Of a stretch of DNA of 64,000 nt, positions 2,283 through 62,461 are shown piece after piece. A program made the position numbers and the translations under genes. This stretch comes from an uncultured Bacteroidota bacterium (GTDB lineage Bacteria > Bacteroidota > Bacteroidia > AKYH767-A > JABDAW01). Under the pieces are notes generated by a model, which saw only the letters and a list, made by a program, of their open reading frames with translations, did no database searches and was not told the origin of the DNA. Every line of letters starts with the position of its first letter. The stretch's first letter is position 1. The DNA is taken from assembly GCA_903844645.1 (NCBI GenBank), contig CAIMUP010000098.1, forward strand, positions 7,571-71,570, written 5' to 3'.

Positions 2283-2385
2283 TGCCATTTGATAAAAAGA
2301 TGACTAAACACGGAATAGTCACTACCGAACCTACCTTATATAAGGAGTGAATCGAAAAAAAGATGACAGAAAGCAGTTTGGATAA

Positions 2386-2763
2386 GACACGAAGTGGAAA
2401 TGTTAAGACACGAAGTAGTCAGGATGAGACATGAAGTAGTCAGGATGAGACTGTTCTTCGTCAGGATGAGACTCATCTTCGCCAGGATAAGACACAAAGT
2501 GGCCAGGATGAGACTGTTCTTCATCAGGATGAGACTGTTCTTCATCAGGAACAGACTGTTCTTCATCAGGAACAGACAGTTCTTCATCAGGAACAGAAGG
2601 AAACCAACGCGGATAAGAAGGAAAATAGCCACGTTAAGAAGGAAACCAACGCGGATAAGAAGGAAAGTAGCCACGTTAAGAAGGAAACCAACGCGGATAA
2701 GAAGGAAAGTGGCCACGTTAAGAAGGAAAGTAACGCGGATAAGAAGGAAAGTAACAGATGAGA
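2386..2763. repeat. 21-bp tandem array A, 18 units
   Basis: Units start at 2386+21n with no slip. Three unit families: gacacgaagtagtcaggatga, gactgttcttcatcaggaaca, and alternating gaaggaaaccaacgcggataa / gaaggaaagtagccacgttaa. Confidence 0.95.
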
Positions 2764-8732: not shown

Positions 8733-8894
8733 GAAACGTTCCGGAAGCTCTTGGGGGACGACCGGAAGGGGTTCGGGGACGCCAGGAAGGGCTTGGGGGA
8801 CGACCGGAAGGGGTTCGGGGACGCCAGGAAGGGGTTCGGGGACGACAGGAAGGGCTTGGGGGACGACAGGAAGGGCTTGGGGGACGACAAAAAC
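8733..8894. repeat. 21-bp tandem array B, about 7 units, G-tract rich
   Basis: ggggacgaccggaaggggttc / ggggacgccaggaagggcttg, with units starting at 8754, 8775, 8796, 8817, 8838, 8859 and 8880. Confidence 0.95.
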
Positions 8895-12005: not shown

Positions 12006-12125
12006 GTAATTAAAACTAATGATAACGGCGGCAAAGAAACTAAAATTTATGATTTCAAATTCACCTTAAACAGCCGATTGCCCCTTCAAATTCTCTCTTT
12101 TACAGGTAAATTCCGCCTCCGCCAG

Positions 12126-12337
12126 CTCCAGTTTTTAATTAATTGGCTTGGGTGGGAGTCCAACCGGCTTGGATTTGAGTTTCACTGGAGTCGGTTAGCC
12201 GCTGACTGGAGTCGGTTGGAGCTTAACTGGAGTCGGTTAGAGCATAACTGGAGTCGGTTAGAGCTTAACTGGAGTCAGTTAACGATTAATTGGCTCCGGT
12301 TGGACTCCCACCCAAGCCAATTAATCGAAAACTGGAG
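12126..12337. repeat. 21-bp tandem array C enclosed by a 42-bp inverted repeat
   Basis: ctggagtcggtt cores at 12185, 12206, 12227, 12248 and 12269. Arms 12126-12167 and 12296-12337 are reverse complements at 40 of 42 positions. Confidence 0.95.
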
Positions 12338-12419
12338 CCGTTTTGAATAAGATTTCGACGCCATTCCCAATCATCCAATTATTAACTTCGGCTTAACTAC
12401 AACTTATGCCGCCAATATC

Positions 12420-15487: not shown

Positions 15488-15739
15488 TTACAGACTATTA
15501 ACGTGTTTCGTCAATGACGATTTCAGATTCCCAGCCTTGTTCTTGTGGATAACATTTTTCTTCGCTAATTTATCCAACATGCCCGATACTTTCGGAAGCA
15601 ATTCCGCAGCCTTCGCCTTGTCTTTGGTAGTCCTCAAAACCTTTACCGCATTACGCGTGGTTTTGTCTTGATACTTGTTCAACACATGTTTTGCTTCGTT
15701 CGACCTGATCCTTTTTATGGACGATTTATGATTTGCCAT
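15488..15739 (-). CDS. rpsT: 30S ribosomal protein S20
   Basis: 83 aa, [13 protein letters not shown]-terminus, highly basic. Confidence 0.95.
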
Positions 15740-15777: not shown

Positions 15778-15785
15778 CAAAAGTA
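15778..15785 (-). promoter_or_regulatory. -7 box TACTTTTG (rpsT)
   Basis: The top strand reads caaaagta. Lies 39 nt upstream of the rpsT ATG at 15739. Confidence 0.5.
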
Positions 15786-15928
15786 CATTATTTTATTGTA
15801 ATTCCAAAACATCCGGCAATATTTAGCAGAATTACCACGCCCTTTTCGCCTCCATCACCCCTTAACTCAACAATTCTCCAATCCTTTTTTCATTAATTAT
15901 GACCTCCCAAAAATGCAATTAACAATAG

Positions 15929-16192
15929 AAAAAACTGTACAGAGCCAATGTCGAGGTCAGCATTTGCCAAAAAAAATTGATTTGGTGGTATGCCGCGAAT
16001 GACATTGGCTCTATACAGTTGTATACCACCAATGTCGAAGGCAGCATCGCCTCTATACAGTTGTATGGAGCCAATGTCGAAGGCAGCATTGGCTCTATAC
16101 AACTGTATAGAGCCAATGTCATTCGCGGCATACCACCAAATCAATTTTTTTTGGCAAATGCTGACCTCGACATTGGCTCTGTACAGTTTTTT
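15929..16192. repeat. large palindrome D: perfect 97-bp inverted arms around a 70-bp spacer made of 42-bp repeats
   Basis: 15929-16025 is the exact reverse complement of 16096-16192 (checked block by block). The track shows the same peptide MIWWYAANDIGSIQLY on both strands. Confidence 0.97.
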
Positions 16193-16286
16193 TAGTTCGT
16201 GGCAGGATTATTTGGGCATTAATTTCAGTGTATTTTGGAGTATGCAAACTTTTATTTCCTCCCCATTTTCCTAAATTCGCCCCATT

Positions 16287-16802
16287 ATGAAAAAGATAGT
16301 CGCCATATTCGTAGCCCTCCTCCTCCTGTTTAATACCATCGGGATGCTGGTATTTTATTGGGGAGAAATGGAAAATTGCGAAGCCATCGCGTGGAATAAA
16401 ATTGCTCACAACGATTTTAATGACGATGCCCTGATTCATTTTTCATCTAATGATAAAAACTTTTCTTTGATAGAAGACCATGAAATTTTGAGCAATGGAA
16501 TTTTGTATGACATCGTAAAAACCGAATCGAAGAATGGCGTAACGATTTATTCCTGCTTTGATGATAAAAAAGAGAGCGGTTTTTGGAATGGAATATCACA
16601 ATTAGGGAAAAACAGTTCCGAGCAATCCTCCACACCCGTTAAGAATAATGCACCAGAGGTTTTGAAATATATCGGTAACGAAAAAACATTCGATTACTCC
16701 TTTATATATAAGGACGATTTGTCGCAGTATGGTTTAATGGATTTTGGGTTCTATTATCAAAGTCCATACAACGAAATTTCTGCGCCTCCCCCAAAAGTTT
16801 AA
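16287..16802 (+). CDS. hypothetical membrane-anchored protein
   Basis: 171 aa with a single N-terminal TM helix, directly upstream of a TonB-dependent receptor gene. Confidence 0.55.
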   Translation: MKKIVAIFVALLLLFNTIGMLVFYWGEMENCEAIAWNKIAHNDFNDDALIHFSSNDKNFSLIEDHEILSNGILYDIVKTESKNGVTIYSCFDDKKESGFWNGISQLGKNSSEQSSTPVKNNAPEVLKYIGNEKTFDYSFIYKDDLSQYGLMDFGFYYQSPYNEISAPPPKV

Positions 16803-16833
16803 TCGGTTTAATTTTTTAAATTCTTCTCAATAT

Positions 16834-16914
16834 CCTGACAGGTTTTTCTCCTGTCAGGTATAAATTATTTTCCAATAAAAATTATCAAACCTGACGGGAG
16901 AAAAACCCGTCAGG
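16834..16914. repeat. REP-like hairpin pair in inverted orientation
   Basis: cctgacaggtttttctcctgtcagg (16834-16858) and cctgacgggagaaaaacccgtcagg (16890-16914), separated by 31 AT-rich bp. Confidence 0.85.
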
Positions 16915-16938
16915 ATAACAAATTTAAACTTAAATAAA

Positions 16939-19275
16939 ATGAATAAAATAAAAATATACATAATCGCAATTCTCTTCACGAGCTTCTTCTCCTCTAACCT
17001 TTTCGCTCAGAATAATCTGACCGGAAAAATTACAGATAGTGAAACAAAAGCCACGCTGCCAGGCGTAAGCGTCTTCATCCCCGAACTTCAAAAAGCTACC
17101 ATTACCGATGCCGATGGCAAATATTCAATGAATGATTTAGGCACTGGCGTTTTAAGAATCCAATTCTCAATGATTGGTTATAAAACCATTGTCCAAACGC
17201 TGGATATGAGTTCGCAGAAGGGCGATTTAGACATCGCATTAGAACCCTCCGCAACCGAATTAGAGGAGGTAATCGTTACATCTAATTCTTCAAAACTTCC
17301 GGATAATATTCCCTATCCCGTGAATGTTGTTTCTAAAAATGATTTGAATCAAACAGGTTCTCCATCCTTGATGGATGCACTTGCTCGCCAGCCCGGAATT
17401 GATAAAATATCTTTGGGAACAGGTATCAATAAGCCCGTTATTCGTGGCTTATCGTTCAATCGCATCTTGCTTTATTCCCAAGGAACTCGCGTCGAAAATC
17501 AGCAGTGGGATGACCATCACGATTTAGGAATTTCTGATGTAGGCATAGATCGGGTAGAGATTGTTTACGGTCCATCAGCCCTTATTTATGGAGCCGATGC
17601 TCTTGGCGGAGCTTTAATTTTTCAAGATGAAAAACCAGCAGCTGCCGGTACTCGTTCTGGTGATGCCAATCTTGGTTTCTATTCCAATACCTTGGGTTTA
17701 AATGGCGATGTTGGAATAAAAGGAGCTACGAAATCTTTCTTTTATTCGGCTCGTTTTGGGGCACAGTCCCATGTATCTTATCATCAGGGAGAACTTGAAA
17801 ATCCGCCTCCAGGCACCGATCCCGATGGCTTCGCACCCAACGCCAAATGGGCTTCTACTACTGGTAAAGCGACGGTCGGAATAAGTCAGCCTTGGGGTGT
17901 TTCCAAACTTTCATACAGCTATTTTAATCGTCTTTCCGGTGTTGTTGAAGATGAAAGCGGACAGAAACCGAATCCAAATGATGAAGCCGAACAAACCGAC
18001 CGTGATATTGAGCCTCCCTATCAAGATGTAACCACCCATATTGTCTCTTTGGAGAACACAATTCTTACAGGTAAATCAAAGCTGAACATCAATGTTGCCT
18101 ATCAAATAAATGACAGAAAAGAATTCGAGCCGAGTATTGATCCTAATGATTCCACAAAGAAATTGGCTAATCTCGCGATTGGTTTATTATTGAATAATAC
18201 TACTTATGACATTAAGTGGAGTTCCAATGCTGATAAGGCTTTTGGTATCACGATCGGTTCGCAAGGCTTGTTCCAAAAGAACACAAATAACGGTCCTGAA
18301 ATTCTTGTTCCCGATGCAAATGTCAGTGATGTATCTGGCTTTGCATTGCTTCGTTATGATTTAAAGAAATGGAATTTCTTAGGTGGTTTCCGGTATGATA
18401 TGCGCCACATAGAAGCCACCGCTCCAATAGATGAAGATACCATCAATGGAAGAAGAACGGCACTTGATATTAAGAAAGATTATACCCCAATGACGGGTTC
18501 TATCGGTATTGCATTTCATCCAAATACTCACACAACGATCAAGGCAAATTTCGCCACCGGTTTCTCTGCTCCGAACTATGCAGAACTTGGAACTTATGGT
18601 AAGCATGAAGGTACTTATCGCTTTGAAATTGGCAACCCAAATTTGAATGTTGAGCAAAATATGGAAGCTGATTTGGGTATCATTTGGGAGAGTGAATTCA
18701 TCACGCTTCATGCGAATGGTTTCTACAATAAAATCAAGGATTATATCTACACCACTCCTACCACAGATTCGATAACTACTGATGATTTTACTTTGAGGGA
18801 ATATGCAATAACCCAGGCAGATGCAACCATCACCGGTGGCGATGCAGGATTTGATATTCATCCTAAATCAGCAAAGTGGATTGATATAAAAGGTTACTAT
18901 GCAATGACTCGTGGAACGCTTGATGCAGGTGGGAACCTACCGTTCATTCCGGCTGATAAAGTTGTGGGTGAAGTGAAGTTTATGAAAGAGAAATTTTCGT
19001 TCATGATGCAACCATATATTTCATTTGTGGTCAGTAATTATTTCGATCAGAAGATGAATTCTGAATTTGAACTCCCTACAGAAGGTTACACTTTGATAGA
19101 TGTTCACATAGGTGGTAAATTCAAGATTGGTAAGCAAAAAGCCGACTTCAATATCTTCTGTACCAATGTTGCGAATACAGCATATTACAGTCATCTTTCC
19201 TTAATAAGACAAATCGGAGTAAGGGAGATGGGAAGGAACATTGGCTTCCAGTTGAGGGTTCCTTTTGGGCTTTAA
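16939..19275 (+). CDS. TonB-dependent outer membrane receptor
   Basis: Signal peptide, carboxypeptidase-regulatory-like N-domain (GKITDSETKATLPGVSVFI), plug region, and a beta-barrel ending in an aromatic/L residue. Confidence 0.9.
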   Translation: MNKIKIYIIAILFTSFFSSNLFAQNNLTGKITDSETKATLPGVSVFIPELQKATITDADGKYSMNDLGTGVLRIQFSMIGYKTIVQTLDMSSQKGDLDIALEPSATELEEVIVTSNSSKLPDNIPYPVNVVSKNDLNQTGSPSLMDALARQPGIDKISLGTGINKPVIRGLSFNRILLYSQGTRVENQQWDDHHDLGISDVGIDRVEIVYGPSALIYGADALGGALIFQDEKPAAAGTRSGDANLGFYSNTLGLNGDVGIKGATKSFFYSARFGAQSHVSYHQGELENPPPGTDPDGFAPNAKWASTTGKATVGISQPWGVSKLSYSYFNRLSGVVEDESGQKPNPNDEAEQTDRDIEPPYQDVTTHIVSLENTILTGKSKLNINVAYQINDRKEFEPSIDPNDSTKKLANLAIGLLLNNTTYDIKWSSNADKAFGITIGSQGLFQKNTNNGPEILVPDANVSDVSGFALLRYDLKKWNFLGGFRYDMRHIEATAPIDEDTINGRRTALDIKKDYTPMTGSIGIAFHPNTHTTIKANFATGFSAPNYAELGTYGKHEGTYRFEIGNPNLNVEQNMEADLGIIWESEFITLHANGFYNKIKDYIYTTPTTDSITTDDFTLREYAITQADATITGGDAGFDIHPKSAKWIDIKGYYAMTRGTLDAGGNLPFIPADKVVGEVKFMKEKFSFMMQPYISFVVSNYFDQKMNSEFELPTEGYTLIDVHIGGKFKIGKQKADFNIFCTNVANTAYYSHLSLIRQIGVREMGRNIGFQLRVPFGL

Positions 19276-21088: not shown

Positions 21089-21340
21089 CATCGGTTTTAA
21101 AAATTGGTTCATCGGTTTGAGAATTAATTTCTTCTTACTTAAAACTACTTTCTTCTATTAATAAAGGAACTTGTTCTTTGGCTTTTGTACTTTCTTCGGT
21201 GTGTGTTTTAGTATTCTCGTGGGGTGTTTTATTTTATACTTATGTTGTTTTATTTTATACCATGGTTGTTTGAATTTCTACGGGGTGTTTTCGAGCTTGT
21301 ACGATGGCTGTTTGGGTTTATACGTCCTGGACCCGTGTTT
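21089..21340. repeat. degenerate 21-bp array L
   Basis: catcggttt at 21089 and 21110. tgtttt cores at 21204, 21225, 21246, 21267, 21286, 21309 and 21336. Confidence 0.7.
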
Positions 21341-28246: not shown

Positions 28247-28401
28247 ATGAAAAGCGCTGCAAAAATTTCCAAAATCCTGTTACGCTTTTTTACAAACCTG
28301 TTACGCTTTTCATAGGACCTGTTCCGCTTTTTATAGAACCTGTTCCGCTTTTTCACAAACCTGCTACGCTTTTACCAAAAGCTACTACGTTTTTAGTATA
28401 A
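28247..28401. repeat. 21-bp tandem array E, 6 units, with inverted leader
   Basis: cctgttacgctttt cores at 28276, 28297, 28318, 28339, 28360 and 28381. atgaaaagcg at 28247-28256 is the reverse complement of cgcttttcat within unit 2. Confidence 0.9.
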
Positions 28402-31323: not shown

Positions 31324-31415
31324 GATAAGGGAAAATTCCAATATGAATAGCCTTATTATATATAGAGTACCAAATTTGTACCCCTTGAGCAGGGTTACGA
31401 CTGACTTTCAGACCG

Positions 31416-31583
31416 AATATTTGGGCTTAAATATCCAATATTTGGACTTAAATATTCAATATTTGGAAGGAAATATTCAATATTTAAGTCCAAACATTGA
31501 ATGTTTGGAAGGAGAATCTGAATGTTTGGAGGGAAAATTTGAATGTTTGGAGGGAGAATTTGAATGTTTGGAGGGAAAGATGA
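31416..31583. repeat. 21-bp tandem array F, 8 units
   Basis: aatatttgg / aatgtttgg cores at 31416+21n. Internal perfect 16-bp inverted repeat: 31441-31456 versus 31479-31494. Confidence 0.95.
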
Positions 31584-33504: not shown

Positions 33505-33570
33505 TATTGAAGTGCATCACCAACGCGAAATAATGCATCATCAATTCAAAATAATGCATACTCAACATAA
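33505..33570. repeat. short 21-bp array M, 3 units
   Basis: tgcatca / tgcata cores at 33513, 33534 and 33555. Confidence 0.5.
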
Positions 33571-35334: not shown

Positions 35335-35363
35335 AAGCCTCACATTTTGTGGGGCTTTTTTTA
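35335..35363 (+). terminator. rho-independent terminator
   Basis: aaagcctcaca-tttt-gtggggcttt followed by a T run. Confidence 0.7.
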
Positions 35364-35400
35364 TGCACCTTCCCAAACCCATTCCCACCTCTTTTAATGG

Positions 35401-35652
35401 AAAGATAGCGACCTTCCATTTAAAGATAGCGACCTTCCTTTTAAAGATAACGACCTTCGATTTAAAGATAACGAACTTCCATTTAAAGATAACGAACTTC
35501 CATTTAAAGATAACGAACTTCCTTTTAAAGATAACGAACTTCCTTTTAAAGATAACGAACTTCCTTTTAAAGATAGCGAACTTCCTTTTAAAGATAACGA
35601 ACTTCCTTTTAAAGATAGCGAACTTCCTTTTAAAGATAACGAACTTCCATTG
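35401..35652. repeat. 21-bp tandem array G, 12 units, highly homogeneous
   Basis: aaagataRcgaMcttccWttt units at 35401+21n. Confidence 0.97.
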
Positions 35653-35748
35653 GAATATGTCTCCGGCGGATTTTCTGACCTCCTCCAAAACTCCCATTCT
35701 CCGTTATAAAACCGGAATTTTGGGGAATCGGAGGGGGAATTTTAAATT

Positions 35749-41230: not shown

Positions 41231-41440
41231 CACTTTTGGAACATAAGAGATAATCCTAAACCTTCAAAAGACTTCTTTTGGAGCATTATGATTATATACA
41301 TTGTTTCAAAAGACTTCTTTTGGAGCAACTAGATTAAAAAACTTTTTCCATGTACTTGTCCTGAAAAAAGTTTTTTAATCTAGTTACTCCAAAAGAACAT
41401 TTTTGAAGGTTCACAATTATCTCTTTTGTTCCAAAAGAAC
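41231..41440. repeat. long imperfect palindrome K built from 42-bp units
   Basis: Inner arms 41317-41348 and 41363-41395 match at about 31 of 33 positions. Outer arms match at about 85 percent. The left side carries one extra 42-bp unit (tcaaaagacttcttttggagc at 41264 and 41306). Confidence 0.85.
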
Positions 41441-45874: not shown

Positions 45875-46020
45875 AGGGATGCTATTAGTATAGAGATAGA
45901 TTTTGTCAAGCTCCGTAGGGATGCTATTATTGGACTACTTTCATAATTCATCACATGGGATTGCGACGGCATTGTTGGGGAATACCACGGCATTGCAGGG
46001 GATTTGAAATCTCCAGTTTC
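45875..46020. repeat. weak 21/42-bp periodic region N
   Basis: agggatgctatta at 45875 and 45917 (42 bp apart). ggga...ggcattg units at 45957, 45978 and 45999. Confidence 0.5.
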
Positions 46021-49019: not shown

Positions 49020-49228
49020 AGGCTCGGTTTCGCATTCGTAATTCTCTTAAGGCGCGTCTTCTGCAGGCAGGTATTTAACTTTTGGAAGGCATCGGGGAGC
49101 CAAATTCCCGATCATTAAATAGGGAGCAAAAGGCTCTTTAAACGAATAAATCGTCTGTGGAGCATTTTAATTTAAAGGCAGTTACCCCCTACTACCTATC
49201 ATCAAAATATCAAATAATGCCGCCAATC

Positions 49229-49354
49229 ATTGATAAAAACCCCGCTGGGATTGATATTTACCCCGCTGGGATTGATGAAAACCCCGCTGCCAGAGATAAA
49301 AACCCCGTTGGCATTGATATTTACCCCGCTGGGAACGATATTTACCCCGCTACT
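49229..49354. repeat. 21-bp tandem array H, 6 units
   Basis: attgatatttaccccgctggg-type units at 49229+21n. Confidence 0.95.
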
Positions 49355-52417: not shown

Positions 52418-52761
52418 AATTGGTGTTTTCTGCTCCTTTCAGAGGATATTAGCCGTTGCAACTCTTAATTGTTGATAACTTTTTCCCATTTCCATTAACC
52501 GTTCTGCTTCCCTCTGTTTACGGGGATATAGGGGTGTGAAGGTTGTAGTATTGTAACTATTTATTCTTCTTATTAATGCCTGGTTCTTACAGAGAATCTG
52601 AAATTCCCCTTTCGATGCTCGGTTTGAAACCCTGATGGTAGCGGTCTGAATGTAAACAGACCAAATTTTCTTGCAACAATTCCGGTAGTTGTTGCAGCTA
52701 CGCAAAGGGTAGGTTTCTTCCGATTTTTTCCTTCCCTTTTCACGCAGGTGGGTGGATTATT

Positions 52762-52975
52762 TACGGCAGCGGGGATATTATCTGCGTCAGCGGGGATACT
52801 TTTTGCTCCGGCGGGGATACCTTTTTGCCCAGCGGGGATACTTTCTGCGTCAGCGGGGATACCTTTTTGCCCAGCGGGGATACTTTCTACGCCAGCGGGG
52901 ATACCTTTTTGGTCAGCGGGGAACCCCGCCAGCTCAAATAATATCCCCGCTGGCGCAAATAATCTCGTACTTCAT
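52762..52975. repeat. 21-bp tandem array I, 8 units plus 2 inverted terminal units
   Basis: gcgggg cores at 52769+21n (8 times). Then ccccgc at 52924 and tatccccgctgg at 52942-52953 lie in opposite orientation and still in phase. Confidence 0.95.
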
Positions 52976-53040: not shown

Positions 53041-53243
53041 CCCGTCAGGTGATTCTGTCCAACCTCCTGACGGGTTTTTCTCCCGTCAGGTTTTGATAAT
53101 TTAAAATCTCAACAAACATCATCTCGAATTTTACTACTTTTGCCAAATGCCTGAACAGAGAATTCCTTTAAATGAATACTAATAAAATATGGAAACACAA
53201 ATATCAAAACCTGACGGGAGAAAAACCCGTTAGGAGGTTGGAC
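53041..53243. repeat. REP-like hairpin cluster forming a 42-bp inverted-repeat pair
   Basis: 53057-53098 (gtccaacctcctgacgggtttttctcccgtcaggttttgata) is the reverse complement of 53202-53243 at 41 of 42 positions. Same hairpin family as 16834-16914. Confidence 0.9.
53135..53142 (+). promoter_or_regulatory. -7 box TACTTTTG between the 42-bp inverted repeats
   Basis: Matches TAnnTTTG and points toward the T9SS gene (ATG 53280). Confidence 0.4.
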
Positions 53244-53279
53244 AATAAAAATTATAGTATAATCAATAAAAATAAAACA

Positions 53280-60212: not shown

Positions 60213-60411
60213 TGTGAATTGGAAGGAAATTTTTGTGTGCGAAACCCGTTTTTTTTGTGTTTCAAAGGCAAATTTTTGTGTATCAGACCTAAATTCTTGT
60301 GTATCAAACCTCAAAACTTGTGTATCAAAAGCCAATATTTGTGTATCAAAACTCAATATTTGTGTATCAAAATTGAATAAATCTCCTGAAGTTTTCACCT
60401 TTGATACACAA
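60213..60411. repeat. 21-bp tandem array J, 8 units, with inverted cap
   Basis: tgtgtatcaaa cores at 60213, 60234, 60256, 60277, 60298, 60319, 60340 and 60361. tttgatacaca at 60400-60410 is the reverse complement of the core. Confidence 0.93.
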
Positions 60412-60495
60412 CATTTGAGGTATGATAAGAGGAAAATCAGCATCAGATTACAATTAAAAACCGCTCTCCCGATAAAATAATTGATTGAATGAAGA

Positions 60496-61771: not shown

Positions 61772-62383
61772 TCAACTTTTCATCGCCTCGGCATAACGTC
61801 TGGCTACTTCTGCCCAGTTTACTACATTCCAGAAGGCATCAAGGTAGTCCGCACGGCGGTTTTGGTACTTCAAATAATAAGCATGTTCCCAGACATCCAC
61901 ACCGAGAATCGGTACGCCTTTTACTTCCGCAATATCCATCAACGGATTGTCTTGATTCGGCGTAGAACAAACCTCTAATTTCCCATCTTTGACAATCAAC
62001 CACGCCCATCCGGATCCGAATCTCGTCATACCCGCGCCGCCAATCTGTCCTTTTAATTTGTCGAAATCACCGAAGCCGGAATTAATCGCATCCAACAATT
62101 CTCCGGAAGGCTTACCGCCAGCATTCGGAGCCATGATTTCCCAAAATAAAGAGTGATTGAAATGTCCGCCACCATTGTTCCGAACTGGCATCGGATACTT
62201 GGAAATGTTCTTGATAATTTCGACAATATCTTCCGGCATTTCTTTGCCAGCGGAAGCATTATTGAGGTTCGTAACATACGCTTGGTGATGTTTTCCATGA
62301 TGTATTTCCATGGTTTGCGTGTCGATAAAAGGCTCCAAAGCATTGTAGCTGTATGGAAGCGCAGGAAGTTTAAATGATACCAT
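61772..62383 (-). CDS. Fe/Mn superoxide dismutase
   Basis: [13 protein letters not shown] and DVWEHAYY motifs. Confidence 0.96.
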
Positions 62384-62461
62384 AATTTGATTTATTTAAT
62401 TGTTAATATTATTTATTTTATTGGATGCAAAGATAGTTTATTTTCGGATAATGCAATCCGA

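Follow-up and report, generated by a model that had tools for sequence, protein, structure and literature searches.

The units of REP and BIME arrays in enterobacteria alternate in orientation and are separated by short linkers; the REPs of a genome have one sequence in common, occur at dispersed sites, and depend on a RAYT transposase. A repeated core every two helical turns is found in iterons and in the sites of AraC/XylS and LytTR regulators, with two to seven sites and one sequence per regulator. Bacteroides invertons are short segments bounded by inverted repeats upstream of genes for outer-membrane proteins. The BOX elements of Streptococcus pneumoniae are built from end modules around tandem middle modules and can affect neighboring genes (PMC3049150). 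Among long palindromes, a chromosomal 246-bp interrupted palindrome in E. coli is cut by SbcCD once per replication cycle; the sister chromosome serves for its repair, and the cells grow normally while losing ~0.6% of fitness per generation (PMC4213011). Here we describe an intergenic element on a 64,000-nucleotide stretch (the window) of contig CAIMUP010000098.1 from an uncultured Bacteroidota bacterium. It lies between the divergent genes for ribosomal protein S20 (rpsT) and a small protein that we call ORF171 (open reading frame (ORF) 16287), and it contains a perfect palindrome with 97-bp arms. The palindrome is probably made of the end modules, A and its inverted counterpart A', of a single-locus array with the layout A-B(n)-A', which would belong to a class of arrays in this clade that is quantized in steps of 21 bp.

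A perfect palindrome built from 42-bp units

The two arms (coordinates of all features in Table 1) are exact reverse complements of each other at 97 of 97 positions, far above chance, and as single-stranded DNA the palindrome region folds at −134.8 kcal/mol, compared with −30.6 ± 3.8 kcal/mol for 200 shuffled sequences (z = −27.5). These values bear out the original prediction, made from the sequence alone, that the arms are exact. Complementarity ends abruptly at both outer boundaries, and its inward extension is imperfect: a repeat finder reported 131-nt arms (15929–16059 and 16062–16192, 89%, 2-nt gap), with all 15 mismatched positions of this quasi-palindrome falling within 16026–16095. 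This center consists of 42-bp repeats (period 42, 2.7 copies, 87% matches with Tandem Repeats Finder (TRF)). As had also been predicted, the repeats continue into the arms, which share one register with the center, such that six 42-bp units (15936–16187) plus the A/T-run ends account for the whole element. The modules are ordered A (two units), two B units, and A' (two units). Module A, 84 bp long, is a long hairpin with the A/T-rich apex AAAAAAAATTGATTTGG, and each B unit carries the core CCAATGTCGAAGGCAGCAT followed by the dyad GGCTCTATACA-GT-TGTATAGAGCC. The left end of the palindrome is 144 bp from the −7 box of rpsT (TACTTTTG), in agreement with the ~145 bp given earlier.

All assemblies that carry the locus are short-read. 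The exact ORF171 protein was found on eight contigs, and two of these, a scaffold-type contig (L001) and a k141 contig (L002) from other samples and assemblers, span the locus. Their arms are identical to those of the window and their center has one more 42-bp unit; apart from this unit, no more than a handful of single-nucleotide polymorphisms distinguish them from the window over ~10 kb. In two lake-water metagenomes the Logan contigs end at exactly 30 nt within each arm, leaving a 133-nt arm contig, as an inverted repeat should in a de Bruijn graph with k = 31. The B path of this graph starts and finishes at the inner end of the arm contig, and any walk of a genome through it therefore takes the arm twice, in opposite directions. 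What we regard as the strongest argument for a real palindrome comes from the locus layout of a sister species (L153, ORF171 82% identical), where rpsT is followed by a 189-bp spacer, the array, a 94-bp spacer, and ORF171. The L153 arms are 74% complementary and were assembled without ambiguity. Since these diverged arms assemble through the same architecture, the palindrome of the window is not a fold-back chimera. An assembly artefact, which the original prediction had named as its possible undoing, is thus contradicted both by the agreement of three assemblies and by the unambiguous assembly of L153.

A palindrome this long had been expected to be unstable through sensitivity to SbcCD. This expectation was overstated, given that the 246-bp palindrome is tolerated in E. 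coli (PMC4213011) and that the arms here are 70 bp apart. The E. coli palindromes resemble the present one in total length, in having perfect arms with a spacer, and in the hairpins that might form on the lagging-strand template (PMC4213011), but they were engineered, whereas the palindrome described here occurs naturally within a repeat array, and its 70-bp spacer is itself quasi-palindromic. Among those proteins of the 64-kb window, itself only part of the genome, that were scanned against Pfam, there is no SbcC, SbcD, or recombinase.

Homologous arrays upstream of ORF171 and the age of the arms

Contigs of relatives were located through ORF171 homologues. A homologous array lies directly upstream of ORF171 in four relatives (L153, L152, L154–156, and L158). 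The element measures 264 bp in the window, 306 bp in L001, 180 bp in L153, 432 bp in L152, and 182 bp in L154; these lengths equal 42n + 12 (or + 14) with n = 6, 7, 4, 10, and 4, respectively, and the number of units changes in 42-bp steps. The ends are common to the species (left AAAACTGTAyrGAGsCAATG, right CATTGsCTCyrTACAGTTTTT), and module A with its A/T-rich apex (AAAAAATTGATTTGG and variants) is recognizable in L153, L152, and L154. In every species that has the array, 92–94 bp separate its right end from the ORF171 start codon. The upstream gene varies: rpsT adjoins the array in just two cases, the window species and L153, the upstream neighbor in L152 is a co-directional DUF4159 gene, and no rpsT was seen in the 418 bp upstream of the L154 array. 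A fixed distance on one side and a changing neighbor on the other place the element with ORF171 and the TonB-dependent receptor gene that follows it, and not with the rpsT spacer to which it was first assigned.

Farther out, no array was found upstream of ORF171 or the TonB-dependent receptor gene in the more distant loci L004, L005, L010, L019, and L159 (the last with an ORF 46% identical and a 148-bp spacer), nor at loci reached through the receptor at 50–75% identity. Upstream of this operon, the array appears to belong to one narrow clade of uncultured freshwater Bacteroidota.

The comparison also bears on the age of the arms. Module A' occurs in the window species and, in diverged form, in L153 and the truncated contig of L158; it is absent from L152, which has a terminal inverted repeat of only ~35 bp, and from L154, whose array consists of A and two direct units and forms no global palindrome. 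In L153, A and A' have diverged from each other at least as much as the flanking spacer has between L153 and the window species. The presence of the A/A' layout in L153, at 74% complementarity, indicates that the inverted layout predates the species split and that its perfection is specific to the window species. The original prediction had offered three explanations for arms this perfect, namely that they are very young, actively homogenized, or functional. The first two are favored by the comparison, and we take the arms to be young or homogenized rather than conserved; a perfection maintained by function fails on the arms of the relatives, which are 74% complementary in L153, reduced to the ends in L152, and lacking in L154. 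Youth or homogenization is what stands of the earlier interpretation as a whole, while the association with rpsT, the expected instability, and the function implied by perfection do not.

The interior of the units turns over as well. In the window it reads CCAATGTCGAAGGCAGCAT and in L154 the related CCAAGGTCGCAA, with the reverse complement in L152, where the B units are oriented opposite to those of the window and L154; the B block has thus been flipped between species. All four units of L153 carry the unrelated AGTAACTTTCTACTA. Units are more alike within a species than between species, and the array is shown by these alignments to evolve in concert. Of the terminal inverted repeat, only ~20–30 bp persists in the relatives. 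For the 30-nt ends of four species, 88% of cells were paired, as opposed to 33–45% when the partner was slid by 1–3 columns. Ten of the 30 terminal-repeat pairs have changed on both sides and none on one side only, with essentially no G-T intermediates among the two-sided changes. Such changes, together with the lack of a consistent folding difference between the strands, point to homogenization at the DNA level or to selection for duplex symmetry rather than to RNA structure.

Several further observations concern the surroundings of the array. ORF171 and the receptor gene are co-directional, and their pairing is kept in all relatives. A Pfam search assigned ORF171 to no family, and its structure model (mean pLDDT (predicted local distance difference test) 54) was too poor for a fold search. 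Seven nucleotides before its start codon lies a putative −7 box with one mismatch to TAnnTTTG, which we take to be the Bacteroidota consensus. A box of this type recurs in the relatives at the same place as TATTTTTG, TACATTTG, or TAAATTTG, either perfect or with one mismatch, 7–8 nt before the start (L152, L153, L154, L157, and L158). If the box is a promoter, as we infer, the array would lie upstream of the ORF171 promoter; given the position of the box, the mRNA may have no leader or almost none, or the start codon may be mis-set. A scan for sigma-70 promoters and terminators is not informative in Bacteroidota. Another contig of the window species (L003) and those of L154–L158 stop in or beside the array. 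Between ORF171 and the receptor gene is a hairpin pair, CCTGAC(A/G)GG-TTTTTCT-CC(C/T)GTCAGG, in two inverted copies (16831–16917, z = −10.7). This motif is distinct from the array and dispersed, with further occurrences at 53056–53244 of the window, 8495–8612 of L159, and ~1000–1040 of L154, and it recurs upstream of a gene for a protein secreted by the type IX secretion system. The pair is kept nearly letter for letter in L159, which itself has no upstream array.

Intergenic arrays with a 21-bp step

The window holds many other intergenic arrays with a period of 21 or 42 bp, a context absent from the original prediction. TRF assigned a period of 21, 42, or 63 to 17 of the 19 tandem-repeat clusters of the whole window, and all tandem duplications of at least 85% identity at lags of 13–70 have a lag of 21, 42, or 63. 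Over a background of 0.27, the autocorrelation of intergenic DNA (10.7 kb) rises to 0.38 for lags of 21 and 42 and to 0.35 for lags of 63 and 84; coding DNA has the ordinary 3-bp signal only. Together the arrays come to ~2 kb, about one-fifth of the non-coding DNA of the window. They are all intergenic and occupy tandem, divergent, and convergent spacers, three of them convergent. Each has a sequence of its own, typically an invariant core of 9–13 bp (for example CAGGATGAGAC, AGAAGGAAA, CCTGTTACGCTTTT, CAGCGGGGATA, and TTGTGTATCAAA) and a variable linker, and some have inverted end copies or are bounded by inverted repeats (12125–12338, 52755–52964, and 60281–60427). The palindrome element fits this class, with its period of 42, dyads every 21 bp, unique sequence, and intergenic position.

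The same 21-bp rule holds in L160–L163, relatives reached through pntA (85–90% identical), although the arrays upstream of their pntA are unrelated in sequence to that of the window. No 21-bp signal is present in the outgroups L006 and L007 (TonB-dependent receptor 75% identical). L006 and L007, and the outgroup loci L018, L019, and L021, have short 14-bp tandem repeats of two related heptamers (for example GTGAGTA-GTGAATG). These are not 21-bp arrays, and the lineages would thus differ in their preferred repeat length. Literature searches for intergenic tandem repeats of 21 bp, in Bacteroidota or in bacteria at large, turned up no description.

Individual arrays vary in build. The array at 2374–2757 has ~18 units of 21 bp in perfect register without an indel, and its unit types drift from CAGGATGAGAC over CAGGAACAGAC to AGAAGGAAA. 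Its plus strand is purine-rich with GGA cores, and a hairpin with a T-run follows at ~2757–2800; it could be a transcribed repeat RNA. To our knowledge CsrA is not typical of Bacteroidota, which bears on the idea of a CsrB-like GGA sponge for this array. Two arrays flank the pntA-pntB operon (49222–49353 and 52755–52966) and have the core CCAGCGGGG in common in opposite orientations; the downstream one, 52755–52966, has eight direct units followed by two inverted units. The longest and most uniform array (35393–35655, 12.5 units, 95% matches) occupies a convergent spacer, immediately past a hairpin that resembles a terminator (35335–35362). No promoter is expected in such a spacer, which argues against a purely promoter-linked role of the class. 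At 12125–12338, between divergent genes for an ABC transporter and an M13 peptidase, 43-nt inverted repeats (95%) surround six 21-bp units that are akin to the repeat ends, a build like that of the palindrome. A quasi-palindrome with 46-nt arms (89%) and an 11-nt center is located at 41305–41407, in the spacer of two minus-strand genes.

ORFs of 60–120 codons were called inside arrays in L161 (9724–9912), L162 (3266–3502), and the window (12078–12350 and 15893–16274). A stop-free unit that is repeated in frame yields an open frame, and ORFs within arrays are therefore likely to be spurious in metagenome-assembled genomes (MAGs) of this clade. A coding reading of the palindrome array, in which 21 bp would be seven codons (ORFs 15977–16195 and 15990–16274 and their mirrors), was rejected because open frames are expected of stop-free units. 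The unit differences within 35401–35652, the one array inspected, had no third-position bias by eye.

Table 1. Positions of the palindrome element, its neighbors, and the other tandem arrays in the window.
Feature	Position	Strand	Remarks
Whole element	15929–16192		Six 42-bp units between an A-run and a T-run; length 264 bp (6 × 42 + 12)
Left perfect arm	15929–16025		Terminal repeat/A-run + 84-bp module A + first 6 nt of unit 3
Center	16026–16095	+	Direct 42-bp B units; copy number varies among assemblies
Right perfect arm	16096–16192		A' (inverted module A) + terminal repeat + T-run
Left terminal inverted repeat	15929–15958	+	AAAAAACTGTAyrGAGsCAATG...; best-conserved part between species
Right terminal inverted repeat	16163–16192	+	...CATTGsCTCyrTACAGTTTTTT; 92–94 bp before ORF171 start codon
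rpsT (ribosomal protein S20)	15488–15739	−	Divergent from ORF171; −7 box 15778–15785, minus strand
Putative −7 box TAAATTCG	16272–16279	+	One mismatch to TAnnTTTG; 7 nt before ATG
ORF171	16287–16802	+	Small protein, N-terminal hydrophobic helix
TonB-dependent receptor gene	16939–19275	+	CarboxypepD_reg + Plug + barrel
Tandem array	2374–2757		
Tandem array	8743–8889		
Tandem array	12177–12302		
Tandem array	21218–21271		
Tandem array	28266–28395		
Tandem array	31410–31582		
Tandem array	33513–33559		
Tandem array	35393–35655		
Tandem array	45957–46004		
Tandem array	49222–49353		
Tandem array	52755–52966		
Tandem array	60233–60427		
Tandem array	62382–62424		

Origin of the array, rival readings, and known systems

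We favor as probable the reading in which the palindrome consists of the end modules A and A' of a single-locus array of the 21-bp-quantized class. Each 42-bp unit would comprise two dyad-spaced halves of 21 bp, and the array would be anchored to the ORF171/TonB-receptor operon by the short spacer in front of it. The perfect arms may have arisen by a recent inverted duplication or because one of A and A' converted the other; this could plausibly have happened by template switching at the short dyad CTCTATACA-nn-TGTATAGAG between the modules, or by recombination of inverted copies. New units would be supplied by a duplication process specific for a length of 21 bp, with recombination homogenizing the units and sometimes inverting them. 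Such a process is suggested by young two-copy duplications, which are already 21 bp, and by arrays that lack promoter geometry. Any function of the array is probably exerted at the DNA level and is architectural: with units every two or four helical turns, and hence on one helix face, the array might serve as an architectural or phased protein-binding platform, and we infer that it acts neither as an RNA nor as a mobile element. In ~125 kb (the 64-kb window and ~60 kb from clade relatives), the motifs of its terminal repeats and core are confined to this locus, and plasmid and viral collections contained no match to the array motif. A search of metagenome contigs with GAGCCAATGTCN7GCAT returned more than 120 single chance matches and no true copy, with a pattern too degenerate to claim absence from JGI.

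More tentatively, and with less confidence than in the favored reading, we suggest that the clade possesses a molecular ruler that makes and keeps exact 21-bp duplications, two helical turns long, anywhere in its non-coding DNA. Candidates would be an enzyme that makes cuts staggered by 21 bp or a chromatin protein whose 21-bp footprint templates slippage. The palindrome would then be one product of duplication, inversion, and gene conversion. If such a ruler exists, about one-fifth of the intergenic DNA would have been shaped by an undescribed mechanism or chromatin organization.

Several points weigh against a single-locus array that arose by length-specific duplication. The arm contig of the Logan assemblies has a depth of ~1.15× that of the flanks, compared with ~1.65× expected for two copies; we attribute the low value to a possible under-sampling of hairpin DNA, and a small discrepancy stays. 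The extra unit of L001 and L002 could instead reflect an assembly collapse in the window. None of the RNA-seq runs searched for the locus contains it. We are not aware of any enzyme or process whose duplications are exactly 21 bp long. The invariant 9–13-bp cores between variable linkers hint at sequence-specific constraint, and the array upstream of ORF171 keeps recognizable blocks at divergences where the pntA arrays are unrelated. Both hint at a real binding site instead of a neutral by-product.

These last two observations keep sequence-specific protein binding in play as the main rival, which we nevertheless consider unlikely. The array would be an operator or upstream-activating array on which a dimeric regulator binds the 24-bp dyad GGCTCTATACA-GT-TGTATAGAGCC of each unit, cooperatively along one helix face, and controls the promoter of the ORF171/TonB-receptor operon. 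That four species have it at a fixed place upstream of the putative −7 box agrees with such a role, as do the dyad-symmetric units at two or four helical turns, the conserved blocks (terminal repeat, apex TTGATTTGG, and core CCAAkGTCGmA), and the sister arrays, in which the cores are invariant and the linkers vary. Regulators of the AraC/XylS and LytTR types also use sites spaced by 21 bp. An operator is hard to reconcile with L153, whose unit interior was replaced wholesale, and with the absence of a regulator gene beside the locus. In addition, with ~14 arrays in 64 kb, each having its own core and some being convergent without a promoter, far too many regulators would be needed. Two specific candidates were considered. 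A LytTR-like ACAGTT core with AraC-like 21-bp spacing is a resemblance only, as the spacing is 42 bp and no regulator is nearby, and we retain it solely within this operator reading. A LexA/SOS box (CTGTA...TACAG) was rejected, since it does not match the LexA motifs of Bacteroidetes, GGA-N5-TCC and CTAA-N5-TTAG (PMC8565304).

Less probable again is a structured RNA or a bidirectional terminator or insulator, whose hairpin modules and T-runs would stop entering transcription or form a non-coding RNA. On both strands, the end modules form 20-bp stems that run into T6–7, the flanking runs (AAAAAAC...GTTTTTT) are kept in all species, and the co-directional upstream gene of L152 would need a terminator. 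In the window and L153, however, the neighbors are divergent and no transcript would need to be terminated, the loops are far larger than canonical ones, and a simple terminator scan does not call the array. At a permissive threshold, Rfam returned no covariance-model match other than spurious sub-threshold hits to microRNA-type hairpins, in the array and in the hairpin at 16826–16922. Folding energies of the plus and minus strands are similar and inconsistent between species, such that strand-specific structure is not conserved, and the paired changes without G-U intermediates and without one-sided changes also speak against RNA.

A recombinational switch, in which the 97-bp arms or the terminal repeats would invert the B block and make the receptor operon phase-variable, has a small chance of being correct. 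Inversion did occur at least in evolution, as the B units of L152 are reversed relative to the window and L154, and a size of 180–430 bp upstream of an outer-membrane operon fits invertons. Against a switch, no recombinase gene is nearby and no recombinase domain was found among the Pfam-scanned proteins of the window; the putative promoter lies outside the invertible part, and no TAnnTTTG box was seen by eye inside the segment. The center is nearly dyad-symmetric, so that a flip would change little. One orientation is present in three assemblies, and no flipped junction was found among the Logan contigs, which drop rare variants.

The chance that a BOX- or MITE (miniature inverted-repeat transposable element)-type miniature mobile element was inserted here is slimmer still. 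With a tandem middle of variable length between two end modules that are complementary, the layout is that of boxA-boxB(n)-boxC (PMC3049150), and the terminal inverted repeats begin with TGTA...TACA. This modular layout is outweighed by an orthologous site that has co-diverged in at least five species, with no second copy in the ~125 kb of clade DNA, the other fetched loci, plasmids, or viral contigs, and with neither a conserved target-site duplication nor insertion polymorphism. A CRISPR (clustered regularly interspaced short palindromic repeats) array was rejected as well, since the units are contiguous and the apparent linkers are diverged copies of each other. Last, a fold-back chimera is hardly credible: short-read data and the low depth of the arm contig would allow it, but the three assemblies from different samples and assemblers, the two opposite passes forced by the Logan graph, and the diverged arms of L153 all oppose it.

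With the single-locus array as the favored reading, the palindrome is a clean natural case of a long perfect inverted repeat that arises and persists inside a concertedly evolving array, and it corrects the idea that perfection signals function or membership in the rpsT spacer. Nearly all tandem repeats of the lineage follow the length rule. Sister species have arrays of unrelated sequence in the same intergenic positions, while the nearest outgroups have none. A rule this strict points to an unknown duplication mechanism or to a strong structural constraint on bacterial non-coding DNA. Because the arrays fragment short-read assemblies and ORFs are called inside them, they matter for the binning and annotation of these MAGs.

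In layout, the closest match among known systems is the pneumococcal BOX element, followed by BIMEs. Like BOX, the array is intergenic, has end modules that pair and tandem middle modules (~45 bp in BOX), and varies in length by whole units (PMC3049150); BOX, however, has more than 100 dispersed copies of one shared sequence per genome, whereas this element is single-copy, occupies one orthologous site, and changes in sequence by species. REP and BIME elements are likewise extragenic arrays of imperfect palindromic units (named in PMC3049150) but differ from the arrays described here, in which the clusters do not share one unit sequence, each array having its own, and the step is fixed at 21 or 42 bp. 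The array can be likened to Bacteroides invertons, from which it differs in having no recombinase nearby, no internal promoter motif, and one observed orientation. As in iterons and other phased sites, a core of ~9–13 bp returns after every second helical turn, and some arrays have inverted copies at one end; unlike in those systems, there are up to 18 units, the core is specific to the locus, and some arrays have no promoter nearby. The unit lengths of Borg tandem repeats reportedly vary. The dynamics of the class resemble those of Borg tandem repeats, which also form many arrays with their own units, independent origins, fast evolution, and absence in relatives (PMC9879509); Borg arrays occur in genes too, whereas those of this clade are strictly intergenic, keep a 21-bp step, and in many cases have inverted ends. 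Set beside these systems, the palindrome alone is not new in kind, and the 21-bp rule of the clade, which is apparently undescribed, is the more interesting of the two.

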